Assembly (NCBI GenBank): GCA_963666345.1
Contig: OY762721.1
Location: forward strand, 3,744,001-3,808,000
Length of the DNA stretch: 64,000 nt
Origin: Desulfatiglandales bacterium
GTDB lineage: Bacteria; Desulfobacterota; DSM-4660; Desulfatiglandales; Desulfatiglandaceae
Direction: 5' to 3'
The notes under the pieces: model-generated
Told to the model about the DNA's origin: nothing
Seen by the model: the letters and a program-made list of their open reading frames with translations, nothing else
Database searches by the model: none
Position numbers and translations under genes: made by a program
Shown here: positions 29,136-45,404 of the stretch, piece after piece
Numbering within the stretch: position 1 is the stretch's first letter
Layout: the number at the start of each line of letters is the position of its first letter

Positions 29136-30188
29136 TCATGCCGTAGCCTCTATCTTTTCCTGCTGCCGCTTTTCCGCAAGGGCTGAGCTGAGAGGGTCAA
29201 TGGTCCATCGCAGCAGGGTGGCGGCCCAGGTAAGCCCCGCACCGAAGCTTACAAGCAGGACGTTGTCACCCTTCTTCACAAGGCCCTCCCTGTAGGCCTC
29301 GTCAAGGGCGAGAGGTATGGTGGCCGAGGATGTGTTTCCATACTTGTGAATGTTCGTGTACACACGATCCATTGGGATTTTGAGACTTTTGGCAAGCGCG
29401 TGAATTATCCTTATGTTGGCCTGATGGGGCACTACAAGGCTTATGTCGTCACTTGAAAGCCTGTTTTTATCAAGGGCCTCCTCGGAAATGGAGGCCATAT
29501 ACTCGACCGCCCTCTTAAAGAGCCTGTTGCCTTCCATTTTGAGGTGATACGGCTTTAGATCGATATCCTCCAGCGCCTCAGGGACAAATGTGTTGCCGTC
29601 CGAGGAATAGAGCAGTTCCCAGTGCGTGCCGTCCGATCTGATATGTGTTGAAAGTATACCTTTATCACTTTCAACGGAATCGATTACCACCGCGCCCGCG
29701 CCGTCGGCAAGAAGAACGCATGTGCCTCTGTCATGCCAGTTCACTATACCTGAGAGGCGTTCAACACCTATGACGAGCGCCTTTCGGCAGTTGCCGGTCT
29801 GAACCGCGTTGTCTACCGTGGAAAGGGCGTACAGGAAGCCGGAGCATCCGGCGGAAATATCAAAGGCCGCGGCCTTGCAGGCTTTCAATTCCTTCTGCAC
29901 CATGCAGGCGGTTGAAGGAAACTGACGTTCGGGAGTTACGGTCCCTACCACTATCATGTCCAGCTCTTGAGGCGATACCCCGGACATGGCAAGGGCCTTT
30001 ACGGATGCCTGGGTAGCCAGGTCGGTTGCGTTTTCATCTTTTTCGTTTGATGATATGCGTCTTTCCTTTATTCCGCTTCTTCTGGTAATCCATTCGTCCG
30101 TGGTCTCAACGATTCCTTCCAGGTCCTTATTTGACAATATTCTTTCAGGGGTTGATGATCCGGTGCCGATTATATGGGCATGAGGCAT
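29136..30188 (-). CDS. fabH: Beta-ketoacyl-ACP synthase III
   Basis: AGCSGF (catalytic Cys), PHQANIRI, YGNTSSA, FGAGLTW. Confidence 0.95.
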   Translation of the reverse strand: MPHAHIIGTGSSTPERILSNKDLEGIVETTDEWITRRSGIKERRISSNEKDENATDLATQASVKALAMSGVSPQELDMIVVGTVTPERQFPSTACMVQKELKACKAAAFDISAGCSGFLYALSTVDNAVQTGNCRKALVIGVERLSGIVNWHDRGTCVLLADGAGAVVIDSVESDKGILSTHIRSDGTHWELLYSSDGNTFVPEALEDIDLKPYHLKMEGNRLFKRAVEYMASISEEALDKNRLSSDDISLVVPHQANIRIIHALAKSLKIPMDRVYTNIHKYGNTSSATIPLALDEAYREGLVKKGDNVLLVSFGAGLTWAATLLRWTIDPLSSALAEKRQQEKIEATA

Positions 30189-30416
30189 ATTTGCTTTGCT
30201 CCTTCGATTTGCGCATTTTTGTAACGAAATAATATAAGAAGAAAGCTTCTCTCTGTCAAATTAAATGAGCCCCCAGCATAAGGGGCTCTGTTCAAGAACC
30301 GCGATTTGCAGCCTTTCTTCCGGGCCTCTCCGAAGAGTTCCTCCGGTTGAGGCTGCCGGGTAAATGGGCCGTGGTTGTAACCTGTTGGAATTAGAAGTTT
30401 ATGTAAAAAATGCAAT

Positions 30417-30625
30417 AGGATTCAAGGATTCGAGGATTCGAGGGGGCAGGGTCCGGGTGGGGAGAGGGGCTTTCTGCGTCTTTTGCCTTTCATGTCTTTC
30501 CCGCCGATTCATAAGAGCTCCAGAAAAGTCAAGGTGCCTGCGCTCGTTCGCAGAGCAATCAGGGATATGGAAAACGTCCGGTTGCCTTTTCCCGCGTTTC
30601 TTGCCTTTCACGTCTTTCTCGCCAT
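30417..30625. repeat. Octamer array plus fragments of the intergenic repeat family
   Basis: aggattcaaggattcgaggattcgag, then tttcatgtctttc..ccgat..cataag and cctgcgctcgttcg blocks shared with 6947-7465. Confidence 0.7.
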
Positions 30626-30889
30626 AAATGGTAATAATTGACAAAAAGCAATAAAAGTATGAGTATATCAAGCGCCCACTTATTTATGCTTGCCTGCATT
30701 AAATAGATATAGCCGGAGGCACCCATGAAATAATCAGACCCCGTTTCTCAAAAAAGAGAGGTGGGGTTTTGTTGTCTGTGATGTGGATTTTGACTGAGAA
30801 AGCTATCATGGAACATCTCCAAAAGAGTCGATCTGAATGCAATATGTTTTGTGCAAAGGCTTGTTCCAAAGAGGTGCGGAAGGGCTCAA

Positions 30890-30926
30890 TAAACGGGAAA
30901 TAATTCTCACTACTCACTAGTTGGCC
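30890..30926 (+). other. Putative attI-like / first core site of the cassette array (G^TTGGCC)
   Basis: GTTGGCC at 30920-30926 is the exact complement of GGCCAAC (31730-31736) at the far end of the next gene; no attC hairpin seen upstream. Confidence 0.55.
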
Positions 30927-30937
30927 GAGGAAGAAAC

Positions 30938-31777
30938 ATGTCATTTGCTGAAGAAATTAAAACATGCTCTGATAGGATTAAGTCTCGTTTTTCCTTATCA
31001 AACACACCGGCTATTGAAGTTGTGCGTAATGATCTTCAGGTAGGCGAAGATGGGTGGAGTTGCGAAATCGAATTTAAAGATGGTTCCGTTGAACCCCCAA
31101 GCCAATACTGCCATGACGCCTTCTATGATGTCCATGGCGACTCAATCAATCCGATAGAACAACTACGCATTGAGTATCCGCAGTTGTTTTTTGATTCTGA
31201 TAAAAATCGCGGTTTTGAAACACATATAACTGAAGTTCGGGTAACACTTGGTGAAGTGTCAACCTCGGCTGGGTTTAATTGGACAATATTTGGAACAACG
31301 CATGAAACAAGTGAAAAATATTGTGCTATTATATATGTTCACACAAGGCCTTTATTCCAGAGGTGCCATATCGCAACGCTCTTAAAAATAGAGGAACTAA
31401 ATTTTTCAAAAAATTCTGGTTGTAGATATATTCAAACTTGGCATGAAAGAGATAATCCAGATTTCTTCGGAGCAATTTCCCCAAGCTTAAAAAACGATTT
31501 TTTTCTTTTTCATGGTACCAACGCAGGTGGCGAACAATACGAGGAAGCAAAATTTATTCATCTCCGCAAGTATTTAGACGGAAGCCCCTATTATTCAAAA
31601 GTCACGATTAATGACAAAAAAAGGTGGCTGGTTAGTCCCCGTGATAACGAAATAATTCTTAAGGCTTTAAAAGAAAGCAGGAAGAAATATTGCGGAAGGA
31701 TAATAAAAAAAATATCTGAACCGATGATCGGCCAACAAGAGCATTCAGCGGATCGCAAAAAAGCGCGCGCCCGCTGA
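30938..31777 (+). CDS. Hypothetical cassette protein with degenerate GNAT acetyltransferase motifs
   Basis: IIYVHTRPLFQRCHIATLLK (motif A-like), GCRYIQTWHERDN (motif B-like); stop lies within attC. Confidence 0.5.
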   Translation: MSFAEEIKTCSDRIKSRFSLSNTPAIEVVRNDLQVGEDGWSCEIEFKDGSVEPPSQYCHDAFYDVHGDSINPIEQLRIEYPQLFFDSDKNRGFETHITEVRVTLGEVSTSAGFNWTIFGTTHETSEKYCAIIYVHTRPLFQRCHIATLLKIEELNFSKNSGCRYIQTWHERDNPDFFGAISPSLKNDFFLFHGTNAGGEQYEEAKFIHLRKYLDGSPYYSKVTINDKKRWLVSPRDNEIILKALKESRKKYCGRIIKKISEPMIGQQEHSADRKKARAR

Positions 31778-31788
31778 TGCCCGGCGTT
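31730..31788 (+). other. attC site 1 (core site split by IS1182)
   Basis: GGCCAAC, stem TCAGCGG/CCGCTGA, GTT 31786-31788; original core continues as GTTCGGC at 33713. Confidence 0.8.
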
Positions 31789-33712
31789 GAGACTGTCGAA
31801 AAAGTAATTTCGCATATTTATATGTCAACCCAACCCCATAAAACACTAACTTATGATAATTTAAATACTTTGATAGGTTTAATGTTAGATGATGTTATTA
31901 GGCAATAAATATAAGCATTTACATGCAATCAATTATATAGTATAGTCTTCGTCATCCTCTAAAAAGTAAAGACAGTGATTTTTCTTCTAATGGAGATGAA
32001 GATGGCACGCTATAAGCATTATGACTACGAACAGTTAATGATGGTGCCGGTATCACTGGAAGAGCAGCTTATACCAGGCACCTTGGAATATGCGATTCAT
32101 CATGTTGCAGAAGAAAGACTTGACCTGAGTATCTTTGACAACCGCTATTGCAACGATGAGACGGGCCGCAAGGCGATAGACCCCAAGGTTCTGATAAAGA
32201 TTGTGCTCTTTGGTTATTCACGAGGTTTGATTTCATCACGATCATTGGAGCGGGCCTGCAAGGAAAACATTACGTTTATGGCTCTTTGCTGTGGCCAGAA
32301 ACCGGATCACAGTACGATTGCAGCCTTTGTAACATCCTTAGATAAAGAAATAGAGCCGTTATTCACGAAAGTGCTGCTGATTTGCGATGAAGAGGATTTG
32401 TTGAGTGGAACTCATTTCAGTTTGGATGGATTGAAACTTTCTTCGAATGCAGCAAAGGAATGGAGTGGTAAATTCGAGGATTTGAAGAAAAAACAGAAAG
32501 CCCTTAAGCGTAAAGTAAAGGAAGCAGTTAGAGAACATCGTGCAGAGGATAAAAGAGAAGGCAAAAGGAATGGTACAGATAGTGCCAGGAGGAAAAAGCG
32601 GATAAAGAGACTGAAACAAAAAGCGGATCGCATTGAGAAGTTTCTTTCTGAGAACGAACCGAAGATCGGTTCCAGGGGCAAGGAGATCCAGAGTAACGTC
32701 ACGGACAATGAATCAGCCAAGATGGCCACTTCACACGGTGTATTGCAGGGCTATAATGCCAACGCAGTAGTGGATGAGAAACATCAGATAGTGGTGCATG
32801 GTGAGGCTTTTGGAAAAGGTGAGGACGGCACAAACATGGAGCCGTTGCTGGAAGGAGCGAAAGAGAAACTGGAAGCTATTGGCTGGAAGGATCCTCTGAA
32901 AGATAAAAGGTCAGTGCAGACACGGGCTATTACAGCGTGAAGAATCTGGAGGCATGTAAGGATTATGAGATTGATGCTTATGTGCCGGACCGTCAGTTTA
33001 GAAAACGAGACATCCGTTTTGCAGGTGCAGGTCGTCACCGCCGTTCGGTGGACAAACGCCATGAAAGATACAAATCGAAGAAGCGCTGGTTCAGCGTAGA
33101 AGACTTTAAGCTTGATGACCGCACCGGCAAACTTATCTGTCCTGCGGGCCACGGGCTATATATAAAGAATCGGAATTTTCAGACGGCCGAAGGATACAAG
33201 GCCATTGCATATCAGGCACCGAAGACGGCCTGCCGTGATTGCCGATTACGTTCCAAATGCTTGCATAAACCCAACACGGTATCACGACAGGTTCATGTTT
33301 TTTATGGAAAACGTCCCGGCAGCCTTACAGATAAAATGAAGCGGAAGATGGACGCCGCATTTATAGTAAAAGGATGGGCATAGTAGAACCGGTGTTTGGG
33401 AATATTGGCACGTGCAAGAGAATGGACAGGTTTACCTTACGGGGGCATGTCAAAGTAAATATTCAATGGATGTTATACTGCCTTGTTCACAACATTGAAA
33501 AGATCTCCAATTTTGGAAAAAGCTATGCCATTGCTTAATGATGATAGGAGATATATCTTACACAAAAGCCCTATTCGCTATGATAGAAGCACTTATTTTC
33601 GCAACCGGCATGTAATTAGAGCAATAGCATCTTCGTGAATATTCCAAGTTCCATTAACATTTTACTCTGCTGTCACGAAAATCGTATCGCAAACTGGTTT
33701 TTCGACAGCCTC
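31789..33712 (+). mobile_element. IS1182-family insertion sequence
   Basis: IRs GAGACTGTCGAAAAA / TTTTTCGACAGCCTC; GTT duplicated on both sides. Confidence 0.88.
32002..33538 (+). pseudogene. IS1182 transposase, frameshifted near 32908 and 33350
   Basis: PDHSTIAAF, LDGLKL, TDNESAKM, QGYN; SADTGY and VEPVFGNI motifs fall in different frames. Confidence 0.85.
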
Positions 33713-33761
33713 GTTCGGCTAAATAATGGATCTGGCCCTGTACAGCAAGTTTGCATATAAG

Positions 33762-34387
33762 ATTTAACAACCACCCCTAAAAGGGGTGGACTAAAAGGTG
33801 ACCCTAAAAGGGTAACATTTACATCCTTATACTAGGCAATTACATGCGCTTATCTTTTTCCAACTGCCATTTGACATACTTTCTGATCTTCTCCTCATCC
33901 AGTCCTATGGTACTGACACAGTATCCCTTCGCCCAAAAATGCCTTCCCCAGTACCGCCTTTTCAACTCCAGATGCCTATCAAAGATCTTTATGGCGCATT
34001 TGCCTTTCAAAAAACCTGTTACTTCCGAAACCGATAACTTCGGTGGTATTGATATCACAAGATGCACATGGTCTTTCTGGACATTCATTTCCAGAATTTC
34101 AAGCTTCTTCCATTCGCACAGCTGCTTTATAATTTCACAGACTGATTTTCTTACTGCACCTTTCAGAATCCTGAATCGATATTTCGGGCACCAAACTATG
34201 TGGTATTTGCAATCCCAGATCGCATGTGCTAATTTTCTAAAATCATTCATTGAATACCTCCTTTTATCTTCAGGGTCACCTACCCCGATATTATGGAGGT
34301 ATTCTTTTTTTGTCACCACCACGCTACCCGCTTAGCATAGCTGGGACCCACCAGTAAAACTGGTGGATTAAGGGGTTATTTAACAAC
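33762..34387 (-). mobile_element. IS200/IS605-family element (tnpA only) in the RT cassette leader; ends approximate
   Basis: Subterminal hairpins CCACCCCTAAAAGGGGTGG, GTGACCCTAAAAGGGTAAC and CCACCAGTAAAACTGGTGG flank tnpA. Confidence 0.85.
33840..34250 (-). CDS. tnpA: Y1 HUH transposase TnpA
   Basis: CKYHIVWCPKYR, DHVHL (HUH), LKGK, FWAKGY, IRKYV; AGGAGG RBS before ATG 34250. Confidence 0.92.
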   Translation of the reverse strand: MNDFRKLAHAIWDCKYHIVWCPKYRFRILKGAVRKSVCEIIKQLCEWKKLEILEMNVQKDHVHLVISIPPKLSVSEVTGFLKGKCAIKIFDRHLELKRRYWGRHFWAKGYCVSTIGLDEEKIRKYVKWQLEKDKRM

Positions 34388-34443
34388 TTACTCCGGTACG
34401 CAACCACAGCACAAATAGACTAAATGACATTCAAGAGGGCCTA

Positions 34444-36021
34444 ATGCCACTTCAACTTTTTGACCTACTGAGCAAGGGTTACTTCCCGAAAGAATTACCG
34501 CCGCCATTCACAACAGAAACCTACGCTCAGGCTCTAGCTGGTCCACAGGCTACCCCGCCTCCTGGCAGTTTTTCTTCTCGCCCGTGGTTCTCTATGTCAT
34601 GTACCCATAATCTTGTTAGAACAGGAGGACTTCGCAGGAACCTCAGCATTCCGAACCCAAAGCATTACTTCCGTTTGGCTGAACACATAGTCGCGAATTG
34701 GGCCAATATGACAACGCTTACGAATGCAACGCCCTTTTCGTTCAGCAAACCTGTTGATATCCATCTTGGCAGATCTATATCTCCTGAACATCGTTTAGCC
34801 GAGAGAGCTGCCTCACGAGTCCATCTTAGATCAACGGGTCGTATTCTTTTAAAGGCAGATATAACAAGATTCTTCCCATCTGTTTACACTCATGCGATTC
34901 CATGGGCCATTATGGGAAAGACCGCGGCAAAAAATGCTCATGCGGCTGGAACGTTGAAAGGTTCTTGGGAAGATAGGGTGGACCTCTTGTCCCGGTCATT
35001 GAATAGTAATCAAACAGTAGGCATTCCTATTGGCCCTGACACATCACTACTCATCGCAGAGGTACTACTCGCACGAATTGATTTAGAACTCAGCCAGAAA
35101 TTTCCCAATCTCAAGTGTTTAAGATATATCGATGACTACGAGTTTGTCTTTACAACAAGATCAGAGGCAGAGGAAGTACTTGGATACTTACAATTTCTGC
35201 TTAATAACTTCGAATTTGCGATTAATCCTAATAAAACTTTTATCATTGAATTGCCTGGGCCTCTAGAGAGTATATGGACTACTAATCTAAGATATTTCAT
35301 CTTCCGCGATGCTGGAGTAACAGGGCAACAGAACGATTTAGTGGCATTTTTCGACACAGCCTTTGAATTGTTCAAAAGGTATCGGGAAGAAGGTCTCATG
35401 AAATATGCAGTTGCTTGCCTGAGGGGGTTAAATGTCCAAGAAGAGAACTGGGAACTTCTTGAAGGTCTCTTGATGCATTGCATATCGATTGAGCCTGCTT
35501 GCCTCCCACAAGTATGCGATCAGGTTGTTTACTACCTTTCTTTGGGTTACCCGGTGAAGACAGACCTTTGGTCTGTTTGTCTAAATAATATTGTAATAGA
35601 AAAGACTCCATTGGGGCAAGCTAGTGAAGTCGCGTGGGCTATGTGGCTCATGAAAATTCTTGATATAAATCTTCAGGATAAATGTTCACAGGCGGTAGGT
35701 GATAGCGAAGACTCTGTCGTTGGGCTAATGGCACTTGGTCTGGCTACAGCTGGATTAGCAAGCATGGCAAATCTGGCCGGGCTTCATCGTTACTCTCAGC
35801 ATAATTTTCTGTTTGAGTCCCAATGGCTTCTTTGCTACCAAGGCAATCTAATGACGTGCCTTGGTCCTGGAGGTGGTCCAGTTAATCTCCAAACCGACTC
35901 GGCCTTCTCATACATGGAGGCTCAGGGAGTTTCATTTTTTGATATCAACGTTCCTGTGCCACCAGCAATTCGGTACGCGGTTCCTCCCGCCTATGGTGGA
36001 GGTGGCGGCGGTGGTTATTAA
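34444..36021 (+). CDS. UG/Abi-class (defence-associated) reverse transcriptase with helical C-terminal domain and Tyr-Gly7-Tyr tail
   Basis: RNLSIPNP, KADITRFFPSVYTHAIPWA, GIPIGPDTSLLIAE, RYIDD, INPNKT; lacks retron VTG and intron maturase features. Confidence 0.85.
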   Translation: MPLQLFDLLSKGYFPKELPPPFTTETYAQALAGPQATPPPGSFSSRPWFSMSCTHNLVRTGGLRRNLSIPNPKHYFRLAEHIVANWANMTTLTNATPFSFSKPVDIHLGRSISPEHRLAERAASRVHLRSTGRILLKADITRFFPSVYTHAIPWAIMGKTAAKNAHAAGTLKGSWEDRVDLLSRSLNSNQTVGIPIGPDTSLLIAEVLLARIDLELSQKFPNLKCLRYIDDYEFVFTTRSEAEEVLGYLQFLLNNFEFAINPNKTFIIELPGPLESIWTTNLRYFIFRDAGVTGQQNDLVAFFDTAFELFKRYREEGLMKYAVACLRGLNVQEENWELLEGLLMHCISIEPACLPQVCDQVVYYLSLGYPVKTDLWSVCLNNIVIEKTPLGQASEVAWAMWLMKILDINLQDKCSQAVGDSEDSVVGLMALGLATAGLASMANLAGLHRYSQHNFLFESQWLLCYQGNLMTCLGPGGGPVNLQTDSAFSYMEAQGVSFFDINVPVPPAIRYAVPPAYGGGGGGGY

Positions 36022-36107
36022 GACGGTCTAATGATGTCTCCAATAGATAAAGGGAGATTCTGTCCGTGATTTACATTCTACCCTCTGAAATGTTTATCAG
36101 CGAAATC

Positions 36108-36168
36108 GTCGAACCAGCGGATCATGATCGGCTCGCTAATCGCTCGCGACTTATCCGGATCGTTAGCT
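36108..36168 (+). other. attC site 2
   Basis: GTCGAAC (pairs with cassette start GTTCGGC, 1 mismatch), CGGAT/ATCCG arms, GTTAGCT. Confidence 0.7.
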
Positions 36169-36271
36169 ATGACCTATGTTGAACAGTTACTGAAAGGCGA
36201 AAGATGACAACTGGATGCCGGAAAGTGTAGTATTGTGGATAGATTTTCTTTGAATTGTAAAGTGGGGCGAA

Positions 36272-38059
36272 ATGTACAGTAGCAATTCGGCAACTGCGCA
36301 GACTATCTATGGGCATATGGACGTAGCGGCATTCCTTCGTGCCTATCAGATGCGTACGAGCAGCGTTATGTGGCTTCTAGGCGCTGGCGCCTCCCGTTCC
36401 GGCGGCATCAAGACTGCCGGTGACATGATCTGGGACTTCAAACAGAACCTCTACCGCTCGCACAAGAAGCTCCCGCCCAATGCGATTACCGACCTGGGTG
36501 ACCCGGCCGTTCAGCGCAAGCTTCAGCGGTATTTCGATGAGCTTCCGGAATTTCCAGCAGGCGGAGCACCTGACGAGTACGCGCAGTACTTCGAGGCCAC
36601 TTATCCGCATGCCAATGACCGGCGGGCGTATCTCGACAAGCTCATCAGGCTCGGTAAGCCGTCCTACGGGCATTTATCGCTCGCCTTGTTGATGCGCGAA
36701 GGGTGTTGTCGCATAGTCTGGACGACCAATTTCGACCGAACAGTGGAGGATGCGGCCGCCAAGATCTACGGGACAACGAACGACCTCGTGGTGGCGGACC
36801 TTGGTGAGCCGAAAAAGGTCGCCGATGCGCTCAATGCCAAGCGCTTTCCGATCTATGGCAAACTGCACGGCGACTATCATTCCGTCGCCCTCAAAAACAC
36901 GGACGAAGAGCTCAGAGAGCAAGACGCCGAGATGTGCCGCGCGTTTTTTCAAGCGTGCAAGACGAATGGGCTGGCAGTGGTTGGCTACAGCGGTCGGGAT
37001 GCCTCCGTCATGGAAACCCTGAGGGAGGCGTTGGACGATGGGCGGGGATTCCCGAATGGGCTGTTCTGGTTTAAGCGGTCCGGTGAAGAGCCCTTCGAGG
37101 CAGTGACGGAGTTGATCACAGAGGCGCGTCGCCTGCGGGTGGACGCCCATCTTATCGACAACGAGACTTTTGACGAGCTTCTGTCTGACCTTGTTCGGTT
37201 TTTGCCTGAAACCTCTGGCAAGCTCGGGGATATTGAAGGGGCCAAGCCACCGCGCCTTGGTAGTGCACCGCTGAAGGCACCAGGTGCAACGACCCCCTCA
37301 ATCCGGACCAATGCGTTGCCGATCATCTCGCACCCTGTTATGTGTCAGCTGATCGACTGCGACATCGGGGGTTGGGCGGAGATACAGGGAGCAATCGAGA
37401 CGGCTGGCGTTGATATCGTTGCCAGGCGGATTAAGGACGGCGTTATCGCTTTCGGGCGAGATCCGGATATCCGGGCAGCCTTTAATGCATTCGGCATTAA
37501 AAGGTTCGAGACACGTTCCATTCCCGATAAGAACCTCTCCTACGAGAGCGAGGAACGCCGCCTCATCCGGGATGCGCTTGTGCGTGCCCTGAGCAGTCGG
37601 CCGGGCATCGAGATCATACGCCGTGGGTGGCATGTTCTCGCGCTTCCAAACATGCAAACCGTGAAGCCGGGCCACTTTCAGTTTAATACCATCAAGCCCG
37701 TTGATAGTCTCACCGGCACGGTAGGGAAAACAGGCATTCGCTGGACTGAGTGCTGCGAACTACGTCTTGACTACAAGCTTGACCGGTTATGGCTCCTTAT
37801 GGAACCGCGCATCCACCGCGATATTCCGGTAGAGGCCACCTCAGCGCAGATCGACGAGTCCAAGGAATTTGTGCGTTCGAGGTTGGCGGGTCGCTTTAAC
37901 CCAAAGGCCAACGCCATGCTGAGCGGGTGGGCTAGCCTTCTTCTCGGGACAGACCGAAACGTCCGATCCGTCACGCTACGTAGCTTCGGCATATCCGACG
38001 GCATTGATGCGACCTTCGAGGTGTCGTCGATCACAGGATTTAGCGGGGTGAGCCGATGA
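36272..38059 (+). CDS. SIR2-APAZ NADase effector of a short prokaryotic Argonaute (SPARSA) system
   Basis: WLLGAGASRSGG, WTTNFD, KLHGDY, VGYSGRD SIR2 motifs; APAZ-like C-terminal half (RTNALPI, LWLLMEP); start may be ATG 36317. Confidence 0.9.
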   Translation: MYSSNSATAQTIYGHMDVAAFLRAYQMRTSSVMWLLGAGASRSGGIKTAGDMIWDFKQNLYRSHKKLPPNAITDLGDPAVQRKLQRYFDELPEFPAGGAPDEYAQYFEATYPHANDRRAYLDKLIRLGKPSYGHLSLALLMREGCCRIVWTTNFDRTVEDAAAKIYGTTNDLVVADLGEPKKVADALNAKRFPIYGKLHGDYHSVALKNTDEELREQDAEMCRAFFQACKTNGLAVVGYSGRDASVMETLREALDDGRGFPNGLFWFKRSGEEPFEAVTELITEARRLRVDAHLIDNETFDELLSDLVRFLPETSGKLGDIEGAKPPRLGSAPLKAPGATTPSIRTNALPIISHPVMCQLIDCDIGGWAEIQGAIETAGVDIVARRIKDGVIAFGRDPDIRAAFNAFGIKRFETRSIPDKNLSYESEERRLIRDALVRALSSRPGIEIIRRGWHVLALPNMQTVKPGHFQFNTIKPVDSLTGTVGKTGIRWTECCELRLDYKLDRLWLLMEPRIHRDIPVEATSAQIDESKEFVRSRLAGRFNPKANAMLSGWASLLLGTDRNVRSVTLRSFGISDGIDATFEVSSITGFSGVSR

Positions 38060-39486
38060 CAGCATCCCCTCAGCCATTTCAACTGCCCGGCTATTCTGTC
38101 CTGACGGAACAGGAGCTACGCTTTGGAGCGGCGGACCCAAAGGCCGTGGATGCGCATCCGCTGCGAGGGTTGCTTCGGTTTGGCCCGTATTCCCGCGATA
38201 AGCTTGCGGCGATCGCCGATCCAATCCGAGTCGCCATCATCGCGCCTGCCGGACAGCTTGAACGGGTCAACGGCCTCTTGCGGGAACTTCAGCAATACCA
38301 TCAGCCGCGTGAGCGACGCCAGTACCTGCCGGGCTTTCCGGGCTTCTCAAAGGTTTTTTACGTGAACATGGGGGCCGCAGGCCCGCACGCGAACGTTGAG
38401 CTGCCAGTGGACCTGACAGAGCAGATGAAGCGGGTCGAGAAGCCCCATCTCAAGCTGGCCGAGGCGCTTCAGCATGCGCTCCACGCCCTCCACCATCAGA
38501 GAGATGCCTTCGATGTCGTCTACATCCTACTGGATAAGGCGTGGGAGGCCGGCTTCTTCGGCGGGGAGGGGGATGACTTCAACCTTCATGACTATGTGAA
38601 GGCCATTGCCGCCTTCGAAGGCATCCCTACCCAGTTCCTTAATGAAGATCGTGCGTTGGTGTATCGCTGCCGTGCCAGTGTGATGTGGCGTTTGGGCATC
38701 GCCCTCTATACCAAGGCTGGCGGCGTGCCGTGGGTCTTGGCCAATATCGATCCGGGAACGGCGTATATTGGAATCGACTATGCCCTCCGACCAAATACGG
38801 ACGTGGATTCGCGGTTTGCGATCTGTTGCAGCCAGGTTTTCGACGCTGAAGGCTCGGGCCTGGAGTTTGTCGCCTACGAGGCCAGTGGTGTCCGGATGTT
38901 TGGGAAGAACCCCTTCCTCCACCGGGATCAGATGATGAAGGTGATGTCCCGCAGCCTGGCTGTGTATCAGCGCAAACACGCAGGCGCTGTGCCCTCACGC
39001 ATCGTGGTGCACAAGAACACTGAATTTAAGCCCTACGAGATCGACGGAGTTTTCGACGCCTTCCCGAATACGGAGAACATCGAACTCGTCCACGTACAGC
39101 AGAATAGCGGATGGCGCGGTGTTTACATCACTAAGCCTCAGCAGCCGAATGGCTATCCGTGTTTGCGGGGCAGCACGTTCCAACTTGGCCAGCATACCTC
39201 CTTGCTCTGGACGCAGGGTGACCTGCCGGTCGTGGCTGACGGGAGTTCCTACTTCAAGGAAGGCAAAGGGACGCCTGAGCCTCTTATACTGAACCGACAC
39301 GCCGGCCGTGGTGCGATGGACGACTTGTGCAAAGAGACTCTTGCGCTCACGAAAATGGACTGGAACAACGACAGCCCCTATGACCGCATGCCGGTCACGC
39401 TCAACTTCGCCGGAACGCTTGCCGCTGTGGTCAAGCAGATGCCCAAACTGGAGCCTCGCTCGTACCCAGTGCGCCTGTTTATGTAA
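38056..39486 (+). CDS. Short prokaryotic Argonaute (MID-PIWI, catalytically inactive)
   Basis: LHDYVKA...PTQF...YTKAGGVPW MID motif, YIGIDY, VVHK instead of RDG, LTKMDWN, PVTL; ATGA overlap with SIR2-APAZ. Confidence 0.92.
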   Translation: MTASPQPFQLPGYSVLTEQELRFGAADPKAVDAHPLRGLLRFGPYSRDKLAAIADPIRVAIIAPAGQLERVNGLLRELQQYHQPRERRQYLPGFPGFSKVFYVNMGAAGPHANVELPVDLTEQMKRVEKPHLKLAEALQHALHALHHQRDAFDVVYILLDKAWEAGFFGGEGDDFNLHDYVKAIAAFEGIPTQFLNEDRALVYRCRASVMWRLGIALYTKAGGVPWVLANIDPGTAYIGIDYALRPNTDVDSRFAICCSQVFDAEGSGLEFVAYEASGVRMFGKNPFLHRDQMMKVMSRSLAVYQRKHAGAVPSRIVVHKNTEFKPYEIDGVFDAFPNTENIELVHVQQNSGWRGVYITKPQQPNGYPCLRGSTFQLGQHTSLLWTQGDLPVVADGSSYFKEGKGTPEPLILNRHAGRGAMDDLCKETLALTKMDWNNDSPYDRMPVTLNFAGTLAAVVKQMPKLEPRSYPVRLFM

Positions 39487-39537
39487 GAGCATATAGAACC
39501 GCGCCAACTCCTATAACACCAGATTAGGTAGCATAGC

Positions 39538-39552
39538 CGCTAACAAATCGGC
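39538..39552 (+). other. Truncated attC (left half) closing the SPARSA cassette
   Basis: CGCTAAC-AAATC-GGC; GCTAAC complements GTTAGC at 36162; right arm missing. Confidence 0.55.
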
Positions 39553-39580
39553 GGAGATACAGAAATTTGTCTGATGGATT

Positions 39581-39908
39581 GGGGGACGGGCCACGATAAT
39601 ATTACGAAATAACTTAGAAAGAAGTCTGAAAAAGAGCAAAGATAGGGCCTATATTGCGATTTTTGATACCGAAAAGGGCATTATAGGTTCTGCGTGATGG
39701 CAAGAGCAAAAAGGCATTTATTGAAAAATTACTTCTGCCTGGAACCGCAATCGACAGAAAGGTAAGACAATCCGGAAATGGCTATGAGTTTGAGGAGCGG
39801 TGAGTCCCTGCATCGTCTGTTTTGGGACGAAAACCGGTGATACAGGCCTCAGAAGGTGCTTTTGGGATGATTATCATGTATAACCAATAAGTTATCATGG
39901 GCTACCCC
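39581..39908 (+). mobile_element. Internally deleted REP/RAYT-like (Y1 transposase) remnant A
   Basis: GGGGGACGGGCC ... GGGCTACCCC ends; residual MARAKRH start at 39697; 29-bp block identical to remnant B. Confidence 0.5.
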
Positions 39909-39987
39909 AGGCGACAAGCTCCAGGGGATCCAAAGGACCATACCATGATCAAGAAGAAGGCCGGTAAAAAACAGGCGCGCTCATCTA

Positions 39988-41208
39988 GTACCATGTAACA
40001 GTTAAGATTGCGTATTTATGTTTTTATGATATACTAGCGACAACCTTATAGAGGAGGTCGCTATGGCACCAAGATATCGAGTAACGCTGCGCAAACAAGA
40101 GCGCCAAGAGCTTGAAACGATGACGCGCAAGGGGAAAATCGAAGCGAGACGATTCAAAAATGCTCGTGCGTTGCTGCTCTGCGATGCTGGGCCGGAGGGC
40201 CCTGGCTGGAAAGTTGCTGATGTGGCGTCAGCCCTTGGGATGAGCAGACGATCGATCGAGAATCTAAAGAAACGGTTTGTGGAAAAGGGGCTGGAGGCCG
40301 CCCTTGCTCGTAAGAAGCGTGAAAGACCTCCCCGAGAGATCAAGTTCGATGGGGCGTTCGAAGCGAGATTAATCGCGTTGGCCTGTTCGAAAATCCCAGA
40401 TGGATACCGACGCTGGACGGTAAGGCTTTTGGCCGAAAAGGCGGTTGAGCTGAAGTTTGCAGAATCCGTATCGCATATGTCAATACAACGGGTGTTAAAA
40501 AAAACGAACTTCAGCCTCACCGAAGCAAATACTGGAAAATCCCACCGAAAGGCAGCGCCGCGTTCGTAGCGTGCATGGAGGATGTTCTTTGCCTCTATCA
40601 CCTGCCGTACGATCCGGACTACCCAGTGGTATGCATGGATGAGTCCTGCAAACAGATGGTGGGCCAAGTGCGTGAGCCGATTCCGTGTAAGCCGGGGCGC
40701 CCTTTGCGTATGGACGACGAGTATGTCAGAAAAGGTGTGGCGCAAATTTTTATGGAAGTAGAGCCTCTTGCAGGTAGAAGGCATGTGGCGATTGCCGAAC
40801 ATCGCAGGAGGAAGGATTGGGCTGTGCAGATCAAGGCAATGCTTGATGAACGATATCCCAATGCGATCAAGGTGCGTCTGGTTATGGACAATCTCAATAC
40901 CCACAATACCGCCTCACTGTACGAGATGTTTGAAGCCGATGAAGCTAGGCGTTTGGCGCAACGACTGGAGATCCATTATACGCCGAAACACGGCAGTTGG
41001 TTGAACATGGCCGAGATTGAACTCAGTGTTTTGAAAGGCCAATGTCTTAATGACCGGATCCCCGACATGGCGACCATGGAGCGCCAAGTGGTCGCATGGA
41101 AAAAATCCGAAACAACCACGCAAGGAAAATTTTTTGGCAATTTACAACTCCTGATGCGAGGATTAGACTGAAACAGCTCTATCCGCAATTATAAATGTTA
41201 CATAGTAC
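39988..41208 (+). mobile_element. IS630-family insertion sequence
   Basis: IRs GTACCATGTAACA / TGTTACATAGTAC; TA duplication at 39986-39987 and 41209-41210. Confidence 0.92.
40063..41194 (+). pseudogene. IS630 transposase: orfA/orfB with A-run frameshift site near 40497-40504 and an extra frameshift near 41100
   Basis: HTH orfA; VCMDE, VMDNLNTH, YTPKHGSWLNMAEIE; WQFTTPDARIRLKQLYP C-terminus is out of frame. Confidence 0.8.
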
Positions 41209-41580
41209 TAGTCGCGTTTCAGACTGCGGGTCGTCGTCGGATTTGCCAAGCCGCTACCCGGAGGTATTTGAATACGTTAAGGATCGCATTCGTGCCGCTC
41301 AGATCAGAGCTTCACTGTCGGTCAATCGGGAACTTATCTCCCTGTACTGGGACATCGGCAAGGCGATCGTCCGGCGACAGGAGATAGAGGGCTGGGGCCG
41401 ATCTGTCGTTGAACGGCTTTCCACAGATATTCAGAAGGAGTTTCCCGGCATTCGTGGGTTCTCGCCGCAAAATCTTTGGCACATGCGATCGCTGTTCCTC
41501 GCTTGGACAAGCGAAGCGGAAAATCTCCAACAAGCTGTTGGAGGAATGGATGGCGATAATTTCCCACAGGCTGTTGGATT

Positions 41581-41684
41581 GGGTCGGGCCGCGATGACAA
41601 TATGAAATAACAAAGAAAGAAGGCCGAAAGGGGTGCTTTTGGGATGATTATCATGTATAATCAGCAAGTTGACTTGGAGACCCC
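41581..41684 (+). mobile_element. REP/RAYT-like remnant B (104 bp, ends only)
   Basis: GGGTCGGGCC ... GGAGACCCC; shares ggtgcttttgggatgattatcatgtataa with remnant A. Confidence 0.55.
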
Positions 41685-41699
41685 AAGTGACAACTTTAT

Positions 41700-41760
41700 G
41701 GTTAACATTATGCTGCGATGGACGCACAAAGACCTCACGCGCCTGAGCAGCAGGTTATGC
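41700..41760 (+). other. attC site (degenerate)
   Basis: GGTTAAC ... TGCT/AGCA arms ... GTTATGC; the core complements GCATAA at the end of the following TA cassette. Confidence 0.55.
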
Positions 41761-41835
41761 CTTTTAAATAAGCACTTGATTGCACCAAAAATTGTATGTT
41801 ATTGTGTACAAAATTAAGACCAAAAGAGGTGCAAA

Positions 41836-42116
41836 ATGCAAAAGCTGAAAATTGATCAGGACATCAGGCCACTGTCAGAAGTGAGAAATGCCATGGCTTC
41901 CTACATCAAGCAGGTCATGATACTAAGCGTCCGGTAATAATTACGCAGTACGGTAAAGGCGTTGCTGTACTGTTGGGCGCAAATGAATTTGAAGCCATGC
42001 AGGAAAAAATAGAGCTTTTATCAGACGTCCAAACCTCTCTCAACCAACTGGCAAAAGGAGAAGGTATATCCCACCAAAAGGCCAAGGAAAGATTATTGAA
42101 GAGAGTTCCTGAATGA
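41836..42116 (+). pseudogene. Phd/YefM antitoxin, frameshifted near 41915
   Basis: MQKLKIDQDIRPLSEVR then stop at 41935; alternative frame continues HDTKRPVIITQYGKGVAVLL...; ATGA overlap with toxin. Confidence 0.85.
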
Positions 42117-42409
42117 AAATAGTATGGTCTCCCCATGCTGTTGAAAGGGCATCGGAAATAGTCGATTACATCGCTCAAGATAAACCTTTGGCAGCTGATA
42201 AATGGATTCATACGGTATTTTCAAAAGTTGACCGGCTTCGATCTAATCCGGAAATTGGGCGGATTGTCCCTGAAATCAATGAGCATCAATTCAGGGAGCT
42301 GATTTACGGAAATTATCGAATCATCTATCATATCGAAAAAAAACAAATATCCATACTAACTATCCGACACGGCAAACAGATATTGCCGATAGATGAAATC
42401 AAGGCATAA
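42113..42409 (+). CDS. RelE/ParE family toxin
   Basis: MKIVWSPHA, PEIGRIVPE, RELIYGNYRIIY, ILTIRHGKQ. Confidence 0.9.
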   Translation: MKIVWSPHAVERASEIVDYIAQDKPLAADKWIHTVFSKVDRLRSNPEIGRIVPEINEHQFRELIYGNYRIIYHIEKKQISILTIRHGKQILPIDEIKA

Positions 42410-42455
42410 AGATTCACTTACCGTACCGCTCGCCTGATGAATTCAGCCGTTATAT
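42404..42455 (+). other. attC site (degenerate)
   Basis: GCATAAA (GCATAAC expected), ATTCA/TGAAT arms, GTTATAT. Confidence 0.5.
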
Positions 42456-42629
42456 GGCACAACATAGATTGGATGAGGTGTGTTTGTATTTGACATCCCC
42501 TTTAATGGGCGTCAAGTGACATCGGTTAAGGCCGGCGTTGGCGTACCCATATAATGCCGTGAGGTTTTTTTAAAGGTTGCCTTGAAGTCTTGTTGGTGGT
42601 GCTTATAAAGGTACGCAAGGAGGTACTAT

Positions 42630-42911
42630 ATGGGAAAATTATCAAATATTATTCCGGTGAGCGATTTAAGGCAAAATGCTGCAAATTTATTGAAACAATT
42701 ACAGAACAGCAAAGAGCCTTTGATAATTACACAAAGAGGACGGGCAACAGCGGTAATAATCGGTGTTGATGCCTATGAGAAATCTGAGCGGGAGAAAGAG
42801 CAGTTGCGCCTTTTGGCTAAGGGAGACAGGGAAACCGAAACGGGTCAAGGGTATGATCTGGATACAATTTTTGGTGAAGCCGACGCCCTTTTGGCTAAGG
42901 AGCCTTTGTGA
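42630..42911 (+). CDS. Phd/YefM antitoxin
   Basis: IIPVSDLRQNA, EPLIITQRGRATAVII. Confidence 0.88.
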   Translation: MGKLSNIIPVSDLRQNAANLLKQLQNSKEPLIITQRGRATAVIIGVDAYEKSEREKEQLRLLAKGDRETETGQGYDLDTIFGEADALLAKEPL

Positions 42912-43160
42912 AGGTCAAATTTGCACCCTCTGCAAGGACTCAATTTCTTTCCGCGCTATCTATTCGAAAGGATAAGTCTTCGGCGGCCCTTGACTTTCGT
43001 AATAAAGCTGAAAAAATTCTGCGAGGACTTGAGGATTTTCCTGAATCCGGAAAAATCATACCAGAGTTTCCGGAACTCCCCTATCGAGAAATGATCATAT
43101 CGCCGTATCGATTTTTCTATAAAATCAAAGACGATACCGCCTGGATTGTTGCTGTGTGGC
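42908..43160 (+). pseudogene. RelE/ParE toxin, C-terminus lost at a deletion junction
   Basis: FPESGKIIPEFPELPYRE..PYRFFY..WIVAVW, then runs into unrelated REP/intron sequence. Confidence 0.75.
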
Positions 43161-43565
43161 GTGACCCGACCCCAAATGAACAAATGAAACAATTAAACGT
43201 TATTGGTCAGCTACCGGACGTAAACGTCGGTTCGCCGTTTGTGCCAAAATGGCCTCAGTCAAAATCACCATTTATGAGGTCCTAAGGTGGCATGCCATTG
43301 GTATCAAAAGATACATCAAGATAAAGGCCGATTCAAACCCTTACTTGCCGGAGTATGCAGGATATTTCTGGTACAGACGGAATAAGAAGGGCAGCAAACT
43401 GTTAGCGGCACTGTCTGCTCGTGAGTCTCGGGCCATGCAGGCCGTTTAGGAGGTTAACAGCCGGGCAACTCCCTAAGGGCTGCCTTTTGAGAGGCTTGAG
43501 CCGTATGATGGGAAACTATCACGTACGGTTCTTAGGCTTACTATTACCCATAAGTCTAGACGATT

Positions 43566-43877
43566 TTATCGCCGAGTTTCTTCCTTAAAAGCCTCAATAT
43601 TTGCCTCAACAAGTTGCTCGATCAGTTTCCTTAGTCGGGCATAATTGGCGATCATCTTTCGCATTCTGGTTAACTGGTCTCTTTTAACATAAACGCTACG
43701 TGTTTTTTGTTGGCTATCCTTATAGGTCAGCCGATATGCCATCCGGGATGACTTTTTTGAGCATATGCATCTCGCTCTGTTGCATGTGGAACAAACGCTT
43801 GTAATCGACCCGCGAACAAATTCAGGGAATTGGGCTAATTTTTTTAAAAGATCATTTCGTTTTTTGACAGGATTCAT
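43566..43877 (-). CDS. Small basic Cys-rich IS-associated protein (DUF6788-like)
   Basis: RGSITSVCSTCNRARCIC...KTRSVYV; GGAGG RBS; inside the IS, divergent from the transposase. Confidence 0.65.
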   Translation of the reverse strand: MNPVKKRNDLLKKLAQFPEFVRGSITSVCSTCNRARCICSKKSSRMAYRLTYKDSQQKTRSVYVKRDQLTRMRKMIANYARLRKLIEQLVEANIEAFKEETRR

Positions 43878-43958
43878 CCTTGACACCTCCCTATCGTAAT
43901 AGTAGACGTATATAATACGTCTACTATACAAATGTCAACTTTTAATGGGAGGCGTTCA

Positions 43959-45404
43959 ATGAACCCAAAAAATAGATCAAGTTGGGCGGCGGAAGAGTTT
44001 GCAGAGGTCAAGCTCGGAGATAAAAGACTCGATGCAAGGCTGATTAAGCTGTGTGATAGATTTTCGGATGCTCCAGAGAGCCCCATCAACCAAGCATGCG
44101 TGGATTGGGCAGAGACCAAAGCTGCTTATCGTTTTTTTCAAAACAACAAAGTTGAGGTTGGTAAGATGTTGGCGGCCCACCGATGTAAAACAGCTCAGCG
44201 TACTAAGGAACACAAAACGGTTCTTGCACTCCAAGATACCAGTTATTTTGTCTATACTGACCATCCGAAGACCGAAGGACTCGGGAAGATGTCTTTAAAG
44301 AAGGGTAAAAACGTGAAAAATATCTATTCCAACGGCCTGATAATGCATACATGTCTGGCTGTAACAACTAAAGGCCTCCCACTCGGACTGTTGGATCAAA
44401 AAATATTTTCACGGAAACTCCGGAAAAAGGATAACAAAAAAGCAAAACCTCACGCCAATCTCCCGATAGAGGAAAAGGAAAGCTATAGATGGCTTGAGGC
44501 ATTAGAAAACACTAAGGAATTAACAGGTTGTACCCGAATCGTCACAGTCTGCGATCGAGAAGCCGATCTATACGATTTCTTTATGCGTAGCCATCAAATC
44601 AATGCCCCTGTCCTCGTTCGAGCAAACGTAGATAGGATTATAAATCGTAAATCCCGTTATGCAGAAAAGAATGTCGAAAAACTTTGGGAGAATATGCGAA
44701 AACAGCCTGATTCAGGTTCTTACGTGGTAGAAATCGCGAAAAGGTCTAAGTCGAAGCATGCCAAAGAAAGGGAAGCACGCACCGCGATGGTCTCTGTACG
44801 TTTCGGCTCTTTTACCCTCAATCCTCCCCGCAATAGTATCAGGCACAGCACTGAGAAACTTCCAGACATTGAGATGCACGCAGTCTATGTTATAGAAACA
44901 AATCCGCCTGATAGCGAGGAAGCTATCGAGTGGATGCTCCTGACCAATCTTCCAGTCATGTCGTATGAAGATGCTTATGAAAAAGTTTTGTGGTACTGCT
45001 TACGCTGGCGAATTGAAATGTACTTCAAGGTCTTAAAGTCCGGTTTTAGGGTCGAATCATGTCGGCTAGGGCATGCCGATCGGCTGGCAAAATACCTCAC
45101 AGTTATGAGCATTGTAGCTTGGAGGATCTTCATGATTACCTTGATCGCTCGTACCGATCCGACAACACCCTGCTCAACTTTCCTTACCGATCAGGAGTGG
45201 AAAGCCCTTTTCCTGCATGCAAATATAAACAAACCTATACCGAAAAAGCCACCAACCATTGGTATTGTAGTCATCTGGATTGCAAAACTAGGAGGTCACC
45301 TAGCCCGAAAAAACGATGGGCCTCCTGGTACTATCACATTATGGAGAGGATGGAAGCGTCTTGCAGATCTGAGTGAAGGCTTGAAACTGGCGGATCAGCT
45401 ATGA
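43959..45404 (+). CDS. IS4-family DDE transposase
   Basis: LGDKRLDARL, KAAYRFF, LQDTS, EKESYRW, VCDREAD, WMLLTN, YCLRWRIEMYFKVLKSG, LGGHL, PPG. Confidence 0.94.
   Translation: MNPKNRSSWAAEEFAEVKLGDKRLDARLIKLCDRFSDAPESPINQACVDWAETKAAYRFFQNNKVEVGKMLAAHRCKTAQRTKEHKTVLALQDTSYFVYTDHPKTEGLGKMSLKKGKNVKNIYSNGLIMHTCLAVTTKGLPLGLLDQKIFSRKLRKKDNKKAKPHANLPIEEKESYRWLEALENTKELTGCTRIVTVCDREADLYDFFMRSHQINAPVLVRANVDRIINRKSRYAEKNVEKLWENMRKQPDSGSYVVEIAKRSKSKHAKEREARTAMVSVRFGSFTLNPPRNSIRHSTEKLPDIEMHAVYVIETNPPDSEEAIEWMLLTNLPVMSYEDAYEKVLWYCLRWRIEMYFKVLKSGFRVESCRLGHADRLAKYLTVMSIVAWRIFMITLIARTDPTTPCSTFLTDQEWKALFLHANINKPIPKKPPTIGIVVIWIAKLGGHLARKNDGPPGTITLWRGWKRLADLSEGLKLADQL

Follow-up and report, generated by a model that had tools for sequence, protein, structure and literature searches.

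Can the last residue of a reverse transcriptase (RT) serve as the primer of the DNA that the enzyme makes? The question is raised by one gene in a 64,000-nucleotide (nt) stretch of contig OY762721.1 from a Desulfatiglandales bacterium (the window, to which all positions refer), whose product ends in a Pro-rich segment, an oligo-Gly run, and a terminal Tyr. The RT is an intact single-gene enzyme of the UG12/DRT6 defense group, and comparison with homologs establishes its Gly-Tyr tail as a real feature of the clade. That the terminal residue, Tyr525, is the primer of DNA synthesis is a proposal from sequence to which we assign a probability of about 0.5.

34444..36021, + strand: UG12/DRT6 class 1 UG/Abi reverse transcriptase gene (open reading frame [ORF] of 525 amino acids [aa], stop codon included)

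The ORF opens with ATG, at a start that agrees with the N termini of homologs (consensus MPLxLxDLL), and its frame is intact across 525 aa. It has a GC content of 0.44, carries the RT motifs YIDD (aa 228-231), ADITRFFPSVYTH, and GIPIGPDTS, and ends in VPVPPAIRYAVPPAYGGGGGGGY directly before the stop codon (...AYGGGGGGGY). The seven Gly codons (nt 35995-36015) are GGT GGA GGT GGC GGC GGT GGT, followed by TAT TAA. An AlphaFold2 monomer, computed from a 51-sequence alignment, had a mean predicted local distance difference test score (pLDDT) of 91.9 and a predicted TM score (pTM) of 0.90, with helices at residues 291-493 (pLDDT mostly >90), an ordered stretch at residues 501-510 (pLDDT 92), and a disordered end at residues 513-525 (pLDDT <50). 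Intact frame, motifs, C-terminal sequence, mixed Gly codons, and a long helical C-terminal region had been read from the DNA in a preliminary description of the locus, and all of them are borne out by the ORF, the codon readout, and the model. The protein is divided as follows; the limits of the first lobe are by analogy with residues 1-286 of DRT4 (bioRxiv 10.64898/2026.10.27.754916), mapped by hand from the alignment.

34444..35301, + strand: fingers/palm lobe, aa 1-286, holding R65, the SVYTH motif with H150, D180, and GIPIGPDTS (Pfam RVT_1 at aa 116-269; conserved columns)
35125..35136, + strand: YIDD polymerase catalytic motif, aa 228-231 (I229, D230, and D231 invariant in 51 sequences)
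35302..35943, + strand: alphaRep (alpha-helical repeat) lobe, aa 287-500, with the VSFFD anchor at its end (AlphaFold2 helices 291-493; aligned to 9wy8)
35944..35979, + strand: ordered Pro-rich segment INVPVPPAIRYA, aa 501-512, exiting the alphaRep lobe (pLDDT; PPxPxR pattern kept in homolog tails)
35980..36018, + strand: disordered tail VPPAYGGGGGGGY, aa 513-525, with the oligo-Gly run at nt 35995-36015 and Tyr525 at nt 36016-36018; candidate protein primer (pLDDT <50, conservation)

The clade of the RT had been left unassigned in the preliminary description. In PADLOC, the model Drt6 (PDLC03748) ranked first with 486.5 bits (E = 2.7e-146; aa 5-505 on positions 4-483 of 511 of the profile), and because of this score the ORF is not a chance reading. 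The margin is modest, with two Drt4 models next (460.5 and 438 bits) and then UG30 (197.8 bits) and AbiK (127.8 bits). A sequence search of the PDB gave as best match 9wy8, a hexameric DRT6 fused to maltose-binding protein (E = 1.9e-64, 221.6 bits, residues 5-509), followed by DRT4/UG15 chains (E = 4.5e-36, 128 bits, aa 16-335) and, distantly, by AbiK (E = 1.3e-14, 57 bits). Foldseek with the AlphaFold2 model returned the same order, with 9wy8_A first (TM 0.87/0.92, root mean square deviation 2.5, 510 columns, ~30% identity), DRT4/UG15 at a TM of ~0.80, AbiK at 0.62-0.66, and DRT9 at 0.31-0.34. The only Pfam match was RVT_1 (37.2 bits). PADLOC therefore assigns the RT to the UG12/DRT6 group of class 1 UG/Abi RTs, sister to DRT4, and PDB search and Foldseek agree. 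Identity with DRT4 was also considered and was ruled out, since the NCBIfam Drt4 equivalog scored only 250.9 bits, under its cut-off of 450, and no equivalent of the DRT4 priming residue Tyr125 is present.

What does this assignment imply for the reaction catalyzed? The reference DRT6 from Sphingopyxis sp. is oligomeric and synthesizes template-independent, protein-linked DNA, and it is toxic together with ORF55 of phage T5 and in sbcB-knockout cells (PMC12783706). The designation of the RT as a candidate protein-primed polymerase, put forward in the preliminary description, is thus already family knowledge and not a new idea. Product chemistry and mechanism of DRT6 are described as not fully characterized (PMC13213688, PMC13314766). 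The RT shares with the reference the two-lobe architecture of RT and alphaRep and the organization as a single gene, and DRT6 is its best profile, PDB-sequence, and structural match. It differs from the reference at ~30% identity and in its tail, which has 25 residues, is Pro-rich and oligo-Gly, and ends in Tyr, in contrast to a reference tail of ~63 acidic residues. We consider it very probable, by analogy with its relatives, that the RT is a DRT6-type enzyme that works by the general family mechanism.

The sister family DRT4 is the better described one. It polymerizes random single-stranded DNA (ssDNA) without a template and covalently on Tyr125, which lies in a fingers-palm loop and is absolutely conserved in 174 DRT4 systems; its residues 507-540 are disordered (PMC12783706). 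Its HD RNase site consists of H160 and D192 (bioRxiv 10.64898/2026.10.21.760695), and its product is contacted by K24, R75, S333, K336, and Y337 (bioRxiv 10.64898/2026.10.27.754916). These residues were mapped onto the RT by counting by hand in the alignment of the PDB search. The DNA contacts R75 and K336/Y337 correspond to R65 and K320/Y321, and the RNase pair corresponds to H150/D180. All 51 sequences share H150, D180, R65, and D230/D231; K320 and Y321 reach at least 90% conservation. The RT hence resembles DRT4 (UG15 of E. coli; 9vdo/21ou/9l9s) in the class 1 UG/Abi fold, in YIDD, in the DNA-contact residues, in the RNase pair, and in a flexible C-terminal end. It is unlike DRT4 in the missed equivalog cut-off, in the nature of this end (the C-terminal 33 residues of DRT4 form a small subdomain that binds single-stranded DNA-binding protein [SSB], not a Gly thread), and in the primer position, where His116 stands for Tyr125.

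34789..34791, + strand: His116, aligned with the DRT4 priming Tyr125; no hydroxyl (column variable in 101 close and 138 broad sequences)
34891..34893, + strand: His150, equivalent of DRT4 RNase residue H160 (hand-mapped; invariant in 51 sequences)
34981..34983, + strand: Asp180, equivalent of DRT4 RNase residue D192 (hand-mapped; invariant in 51 sequences)

In the column of His116, Tyr occurs in 11% of the broad set, and none of the columns 104-125 retains Tyr or any other hydroxyl in 35 near and 138 broad sequences. The preliminary description had named as a refutation that the enzyme falls into a characterized DRT clade with another priming residue. This objection does not arise, as DRT4, the closest relative whose primer is mapped, has its Tyr125 where a variable column with His116 is found here. 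The conserved hydroxyls near the primer-loop region are S96, S99, and S/T101, and S99 is present in DRT4 too, where it is not the primer. Because the primer site of DRT4 is absent and no further conserved hydroxyl on a mobile element can be seen, the Tyr at the chain end becomes the best primer candidate in this clade.

How well is this end conserved? The close homologs were the best 120 of 799 matches. A VSFFD-type anchor, and hence a complete C terminus, is present in 114 of them; five of the six anchor-less homologs are truncated or divergent at the C terminus, and one is full length with a divergent anchor. Tyr is the final residue in 81 of the 114 and lies elsewhere in the last five in another 25 (mostly as ...G[DE]YP[MIEL]), which leaves 8 without it. 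A FastTree tree was calculated from the protein bodies with the tails removed (109 rows, the RT of the window and 108 homologs of at least 440 aa). Tyr lies within the last five residues in 101 of these rows, down to ~40% identity. In seven rows, Ser or Thr stands directly behind the Gly run (GGGGGGSP, GGGGGGSPPD, GGGGGSPD, GGGGGGGSM, GGGGGST, GGGSGDD, and GWTTTSV), and in one row, Tyr is found at position -8. Phe, His, or Trp replaced the tail Tyr in 0 of 109 rows, and the state of the tail residue changed seven times on the tree. The conservation of the terminal Tyr, a check that the preliminary description had proposed, thus turned out positive, with Tyr at or near the end behind oligo-Gly in 106/114 and 101/109 sequences.

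The length of the tether is held as well. The distance from the anchor to the hydroxyl is 23.9 ± 2.3 residues (median, 24; interquartile range, 23-25; range, 18-29), and the eight residues preceding the hydroxyl are 64% Gly. The Gly-rich block itself varies from 0 to 17 residues, and the parts of the tether compensate each other (correlation, -0.80; variance of the total, 5.4, versus 27.5 for the summed parts). Since ends of the type ...GGGY-COOH and of the type ...GG[DE]YP[MIE] both occur, the conserved element is the Tyr and not the free carboxylate. On the evidence of these sequences, the fixed-length oligo-Gly/Tyr tether defines a sub-clade of UG12/DRT6.

A Gly run followed by one Tyr could also be neutral low-complexity sequence, left by slippage or drift and without any function. 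The tail is disordered and the number of Gly residues differs among close homologs (block of 0 to 17), as expected under this view. It is at odds with the mixed Gly codons, with the compensated total length, and with a Tyr that is kept in 101 of 109 rows down to ~40% identity and replaced by hydroxyl residues only. Furthermore, Tyr is enriched at the end throughout the broad family, for which 138 representatives were examined: 76 of them (55%) have Tyr in the last five residues, compared to 20% for the remaining windows of five residues within the final 40 aa and 15% for those of the body. We therefore regard a functionless tail as very unlikely.

If the tail has a function, priming is the one that we favor. 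Only Ser and Thr replace the Tyr, the tether length is held, and Tyr rather than a carboxylate is conserved; for these reasons, too, the chain-end Tyr is the best candidate for the primer. In addition, its near-terminal position would allow entry into a channel in single file, and DRT9 provides a precedent. In this class 2 enzyme, Y496 and Y498 of the C-terminal tail are implicated as primers, and a C-terminal FLAG tag abolishes defense (PMC12483538). The preliminary description had invoked C-terminal tyrosines of DRT9, and this precedent is real. The analogy is with the position of the primer: the RT is unlike DRT9 (UG28) in that DRT9 needs a structured upstream noncoding RNA (ncRNA) as scaffold and poly-U template, makes poly-dA, and is structurally remote from the RT, as the low TM scores given above indicate. 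Moreover, the DRT9 tail (...SLNYDYE) is not rich in Gly, and a docked position next to the active site is predicted for it, unlike for the tail described here. Within class 1, primers sit on mobile elements, with the subdomain differing by family (bioRxiv 10.64898/2026.02.16.706125). AbiK, Abi-P2, AbiA, and DRT7 (UG10) resemble the RT as class 1 UG/Abi enzymes with an alphaRep lobe, for which protein-primed, untemplated synthesis is reported in the same work; their primers lie in the fingers (AbiK), in the linker between RT and alphaRep (AbiA), or in an alphaRep helix (UG10), and not at the chain end.

The strongest competitor of the priming role is a tail that acts as a sensor or docking motif, whose binding partner would be an SSB-like trigger from the phage or a host factor, for instance an exonuclease or SSB partner, and which would thereby license the RNase or toxicity, while DNA would be primed on an internal, possibly non-conserved hydroxyl. 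The C-terminal domain (CTD) of DRT4 (508-540) indeed is flexible, binds the phage SSB gp44, and is needed for RNase activation, whereas synthesis persists without it (bioRxiv 10.64898/2026.10.21.760695), and UG15 lacking 38 C-terminal residues loses immunity (PMC9226505). A sensor would also be in line with the acidic tail of the reference DRT6 and with the observation that, in the broad family, variability peaks in the tails, which fall into distinct short-motif classes (13 of 138 resembling the SSB tip) as in an arms-race interface; data on DRT9 suggest that other hydroxyls can prime, less efficiently (PMC12483538). On the other hand, an aromatic residue used for binding should tolerate Phe, Trp, or His, of which none was seen, all seven replacements being Ser or Thr. 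The free carboxylate is not conserved (Y-COOH and YPx-COOH), unlike what a pocket for an SSB-type C-terminal tip would demand, oligo-Gly offers almost no binding surface, and there is no conserved internal loop hydroxyl that could be the other primer. The strict tether length is better suited to delivery of the tail within the enzyme itself than to binding of a partner from outside, though the second is still compatible with it. Taken together, we rate the sensor as possible and less probable than priming by Tyr525.

It is also imaginable that the tail is an autoinhibitory plug, with the Gly thread and the Tyr lying in channel and active site as an unextended pseudo-substrate that keeps polymerase or RNase off until the trigger arrives. 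Constrained tether length and near-terminal position would suit a plug, the disordered tail adjoins the helical lobe, which lines the channel in DRT4, and models of DRT4 place the acidic tail of phage gp44 in the DNA channel and thus suggest a channel able to accommodate peptide tails, tentatively according to the authors (bioRxiv 10.64898/2026.10.21.760695). However, DRT4 and DRT6 synthesize DNA constitutively in vitro and are checked by exonuclease rather than by autoinhibition (PMC12783706), the swaps from Tyr to Ser, which retain the hydroxyl, would not be needed, and no docking is seen in the AlphaFold2 model. Hence, a plug appears improbable.

Returning to priming by Tyr525, the model that we propose starts from what is directly supported for the RT, namely, that it belongs to the DRT6 family and has its fold, that residues for catalysis, DNA binding, and RNase activity are conserved, and that the tail is disordered and keeps both its hydroxyl and its length. 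From there, we infer the oligomer, the product, the trigger, and the role of Tyr525 as primer. The RT would be an intact single-gene enzyme of abortive infection that assembles into an oligomer, hexameric by homology to DRT6 and DRT4, with two trimers placed back to back as in the DRT6 group. Each protomer would make ssDNA without a template or a nucleic acid primer, beginning on a hydroxyl of its own protein, and the product would remain covalently bound to the protein. A host 3'-5' exonuclease would hold the product short. Upon infection, a phage SSB-like protein (in one report on DRT4 together with raised deoxynucleoside triphosphates) would stabilize or bind the product, and this would turn on toxicity, probably via the conserved RNase site His150/Asp180. 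The step that may be specific to the clade is the use of Tyr525 as the priming hydroxyl: the ordered Pro-rich segment 501-512 would exit the helical lobe, and the oligo-Gly thread (513-524), free of side chains, would allow the chain end to pass in single file into a narrow product channel and place the hydroxyl of Tyr525 at the YIDD site. As the DNA grows, it would drive the tail back out of the channel.

Several points speak against a primer at the chain end. Both the reach of Tyr525 to the active site and its covalent linkage to DNA are conjectural. The AlphaFold2 monomer leaves the tail free and not in the active site, a placement that counts neither for nor against priming. In DRT4, the nearest relative with a mapped primer, DNA starts on a Tyr of an internal loop, the flexible CTD is a sensor of phage SSB, and after deletion of the CTD, ssDNA is still made (bioRxiv 10.64898/2026.10.21.760695). 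Conserved internal hydroxyls (S96, S99, S/T101, and Y465) are possible alternative primers. Ser is common in Gly-rich linkers, and the finding that seven of the eight Tyr-less tails have Ser or Thr has a chance probability of ~0.01, a rough estimate from tail composition (Ser plus Thr about 10%) that is suggestive and not decisive. The tail sequences are related to each other, the tree is a FastTree tree only, and the homologs are the best 120 of 799 matches. In the broad family, the last five residues lack Tyr, Ser, and Thr in 10 of 138 tails, and an acidic tail with Phe at its end is found in 13 of 138. Finally, the tail of the reference Sphingopyxis DRT6 belongs to another class, extending ~63 residues past the aligned end and being strongly acidic; it was glimpsed partly, through the alignment of one family homolog to 9wy8, and since the 9wy8 model holds only 495 residues of the chain, this tail is presumably unmodeled. 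A motif search for the reference DRT6 among the fetched family proteins found no copy.

Could the chain end be the primer beyond this sub-clade? At 31-40% identity, the tails of the 138 representatives are hypervariable. Nine are oligo-Gly with a hydroxyl, 53 others carry Tyr at one of the last three positions, 13 are acidic with a final Phe, 9 end in ...PxF[SY]x, 4 end in ...[VIF]SG, 6 are otherwise acidic, and 44 are of other types. Tyr, Ser, or Thr is present in the last five residues of 128 of the 138, compared to 62% of the other windows in the last 40 aa and 57% in the body. Because 10 of 138 have no hydroxyl among the last five residues, and some tails end in Phe, the tail cannot be a universal UG12 primer. 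Loop Tyr and tail Tyr are not mutually exclusive in this set (tail Tyr in 23 of 43 sequences with a loop Tyr and in 53 of 95 without). It is a rather doubtful generalization that the C terminus of UG12/DRT6 at large is an exchangeable primer tether, threaded in single file, with DNA begun on a hydroxyl in the last few residues. The flavor of the tether (oligo-Gly here, DNA-mimicking acidic, or SSB-tip-like) could then tune how the adduct meets SSB-like triggers and the restraining exonuclease. The Tyr525 clade would be the cleanest case of such a tether, and in the literature searched, no chain-end primer precedent was found for class 1 UG/Abi enzymes.

Two further observations on these tails may be noted. 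The 13 acidic, Phe-ending tails resemble the C-terminal tip of SSB (e.g., ...DTDIPF and ...DDDDKLPF), and since DRT4 and DRT6 are described in the literature as restrained by ExoI and triggered by phage SSBs, they might recruit or mimic SSB partners. Another tail of the broad family ends in ..DDDFDLxYLLGDVSG.

Neither a DRT6 priming residue nor an oligo-Gly/Tyr tether was found in the literature searched, which excluded the DRT6 structure paper of Wang et al. 2025, BBRC 791:152955. The UG12 passages of PMC9226505 make no mention of the tail (the word "glycine" has 0 occurrences in them), and neither a sequence of DRT6 nor its primer was found in the supplements of PMC9226505 and PMC12783706. 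Among single-gene defense RTs of class 1, DRT6 is the least resolved, and the clade described here turns the question of its primer into a one-residue test, with a terminal residue, a Gly thread of fixed length, and natural Tyr-to-Ser variants. If the chain end primes, it would be a further primer location for class 1 UG/Abi enzymes, beside fingers, palm loop, inter-domain linker, and alphaRep helix; it would explain why the DRT4 primer Tyr is missing here, and it would suggest a small and portable "primer tag" with which proteins could be conjugated to DNA. Otherwise, the tail would be a candidate for the motif that recognizes the trigger, comparable to the CTD of DRT4. Either way, the RT gene is an ordinary member of a known defense family in a defense island.

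Does the RT act alone, or does it need a flanking RNA or a recombination site? An RT templated by ncRNA (of the retron, DRT2, or DRT9 type) or a gene of an integron cassette would depend on such sequences, and the analogy to the C-terminal tyrosines of DRT9 and the label "cassette-borne" in the preliminary description pointed that way. Yet no DRT9, DRT2, or retron model is among the best 25 of 67 PADLOC families, the lowest rows of which are UG-group models of about 32-45 bits, and the NCBIfam model of the retron St85 RT scored 29.9 bits against a cut-off of 235. Of 80 related loci, the RT ORF was located in 45, and no flanking ORF recurs in more than 4 of these. An Rfam scan of 30000-40000 gave only a sub-threshold match to CRISPR-DR15, inside the IS200 end, and no relevant ncRNA family; with no upstream structured ncRNA match and a leader of ~110 nt, which is split by IS200, the locus differs from DRT9/UG28. 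No attC-like repeat family is present in 30000-45500. Phage_integrase has 14 matches in the genome and none within the window, the nearest lying ~63 kb past its end and ~184 kb before its start. An integron gene cassette is ruled out by the missing attC-like repeats and the missing tyrosine recombinase in the window, the flanks being insertion sequence (IS) elements, and "cassette-borne" in the integron sense is therefore not supported. Dependence on a flanking RNA or recombination site is the least probable of all alternatives considered. The locus fits a single-gene, ncRNA-free class 1 system, and a stand-alone antiviral UG/Abi RT with neither room nor need for an ncRNA, close to the view of the preliminary description, is supported by class 1 assignment, unshared flanks, and Rfam.

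The leader itself is interrupted by a mobile element:

33762..34383, - strand: IS200/IS605-type insertion splitting the RT leader; tnpA at 33840-34322 (Pfam Y1_Tnp, 137.7 bits)
34384..34443, + strand: proximal leader, 60 nt from the IS200 end to ATG, with AGAGGG 6-11 nt before the start (sequence; no Rfam match)

Without IS200, the leader from the preceding IS, at its right inverted repeat (33712), to ATG is about 109-115 nt long, in agreement with the ~115 bp given in the preliminary description. The element is bounded by ATTTAACAAC at 33762 and 34378 (two matches; two were reached in 0 of 100 shuffles). At both of its borders (33761/33762 and 34383/34384), contigs have loose ends that run into other contexts, and in run X1, the depth of the IS200 contig was 71.6 versus 12.3-14.7 for the flanks, about six-fold. 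The IS200/IS605 element is thus multi-copy in the genome of the source organism. None of the metagenome contigs compared (window part 33400-36300) bridges the IS200 site. Since IS200 sits 60 nt before the start codon, the native RT promoter may be displaced; a scan of 33600-36400 for promoters and terminators gave counts at shuffle level (7 versus 5.7 and 2 versus 2.4, respectively). Upstream of IS200 lies a degenerate IS (31789-33712), whose inverted repeats, imperfect and 22 nt long, are at 31789 and 33691-33712. Its transposase (DUF772 plus DDE_Tnp_1_6) is broken into two or more overlapping frames (31975-32940 and 32937-33383) and is probably decayed.

In which surroundings did the gene arrive? 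Between ~30 and 50 kb, the base composition of the window drops and becomes mosaic (GC 0.41-0.56, versus about 0.51-0.53 elsewhere), and the RT sits here in an IS-riddled defense island. The island comprises the two IS elements upstream of the RT, the RT, a SIR2-APAZ gene with a short prokaryotic Argonaute (pAgo), a DDE_3 transposase, a DUF1016/PDC-S02 fragment, a ParE toxin, and a Tn5-like IS. The genes directly 3' of the RT are as follows:

36272-38059, + strand: SIR2-APAZ gene, 595 aa (PADLOC Aga_SIR2-PNTD1-PNTD2, 572 bits)
38056-39486, + strand: short pAgo gene, 476 aa (PADLOC pAgo_I, 618 bits)

The two overlap by 4 nt and constitute a SPARSA-type short-Argonaute defense system; with a GC content of 0.55, compared to 0.44 for the RT gene, they were probably acquired separately from it. 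Farther downstream, two 57-nt direct repeats (39844-39900 and 41621-41677; 81% alike and 1777 nt apart) flank the DDE_3 (IS630-like) transposase and the DUF1016/PDC-S02 fragment. The ParE toxin ORF (42908-43285) and then the Tn5-like IS with perfect 19-nt inverted repeats (43537/45424) follow. An ORF of 279 aa (30938-31777, + strand) at the low-GC margin (0.41) of the island has no Pfam or PADLOC match.

The RT gene is present in a single copy in its own 4.16-Mb genome and was not found in 30 related genomes, in which the lone match (19.7 bits) is a distant RT. Relatives are widespread: a profile search returned 7984 cluster representatives at an E value of ≤0.001 and 1833 at ≤1e-30, and a further 406 relatives are in species-representative genomes of many phyla. 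The named genome matches of the oligo-Gly/Tyr sub-clade are metagenome-assembled genomes labeled as Planctomycetes, Verrucomicrobia, and delta-proteobacteria types. A plasmid collection held distant relatives only (346 records, all with <60% identity to the RT, with 9 of them spanning 80% or more of the query). In three runs (X3, X4, and X5) labeled marine sediment metagenome and originating from three studies, contigs include pieces that match portions of the RT gene exactly, and since the listed pieces contain 0 other letters, the same or a very close strain is present in marine sediment metagenomes.

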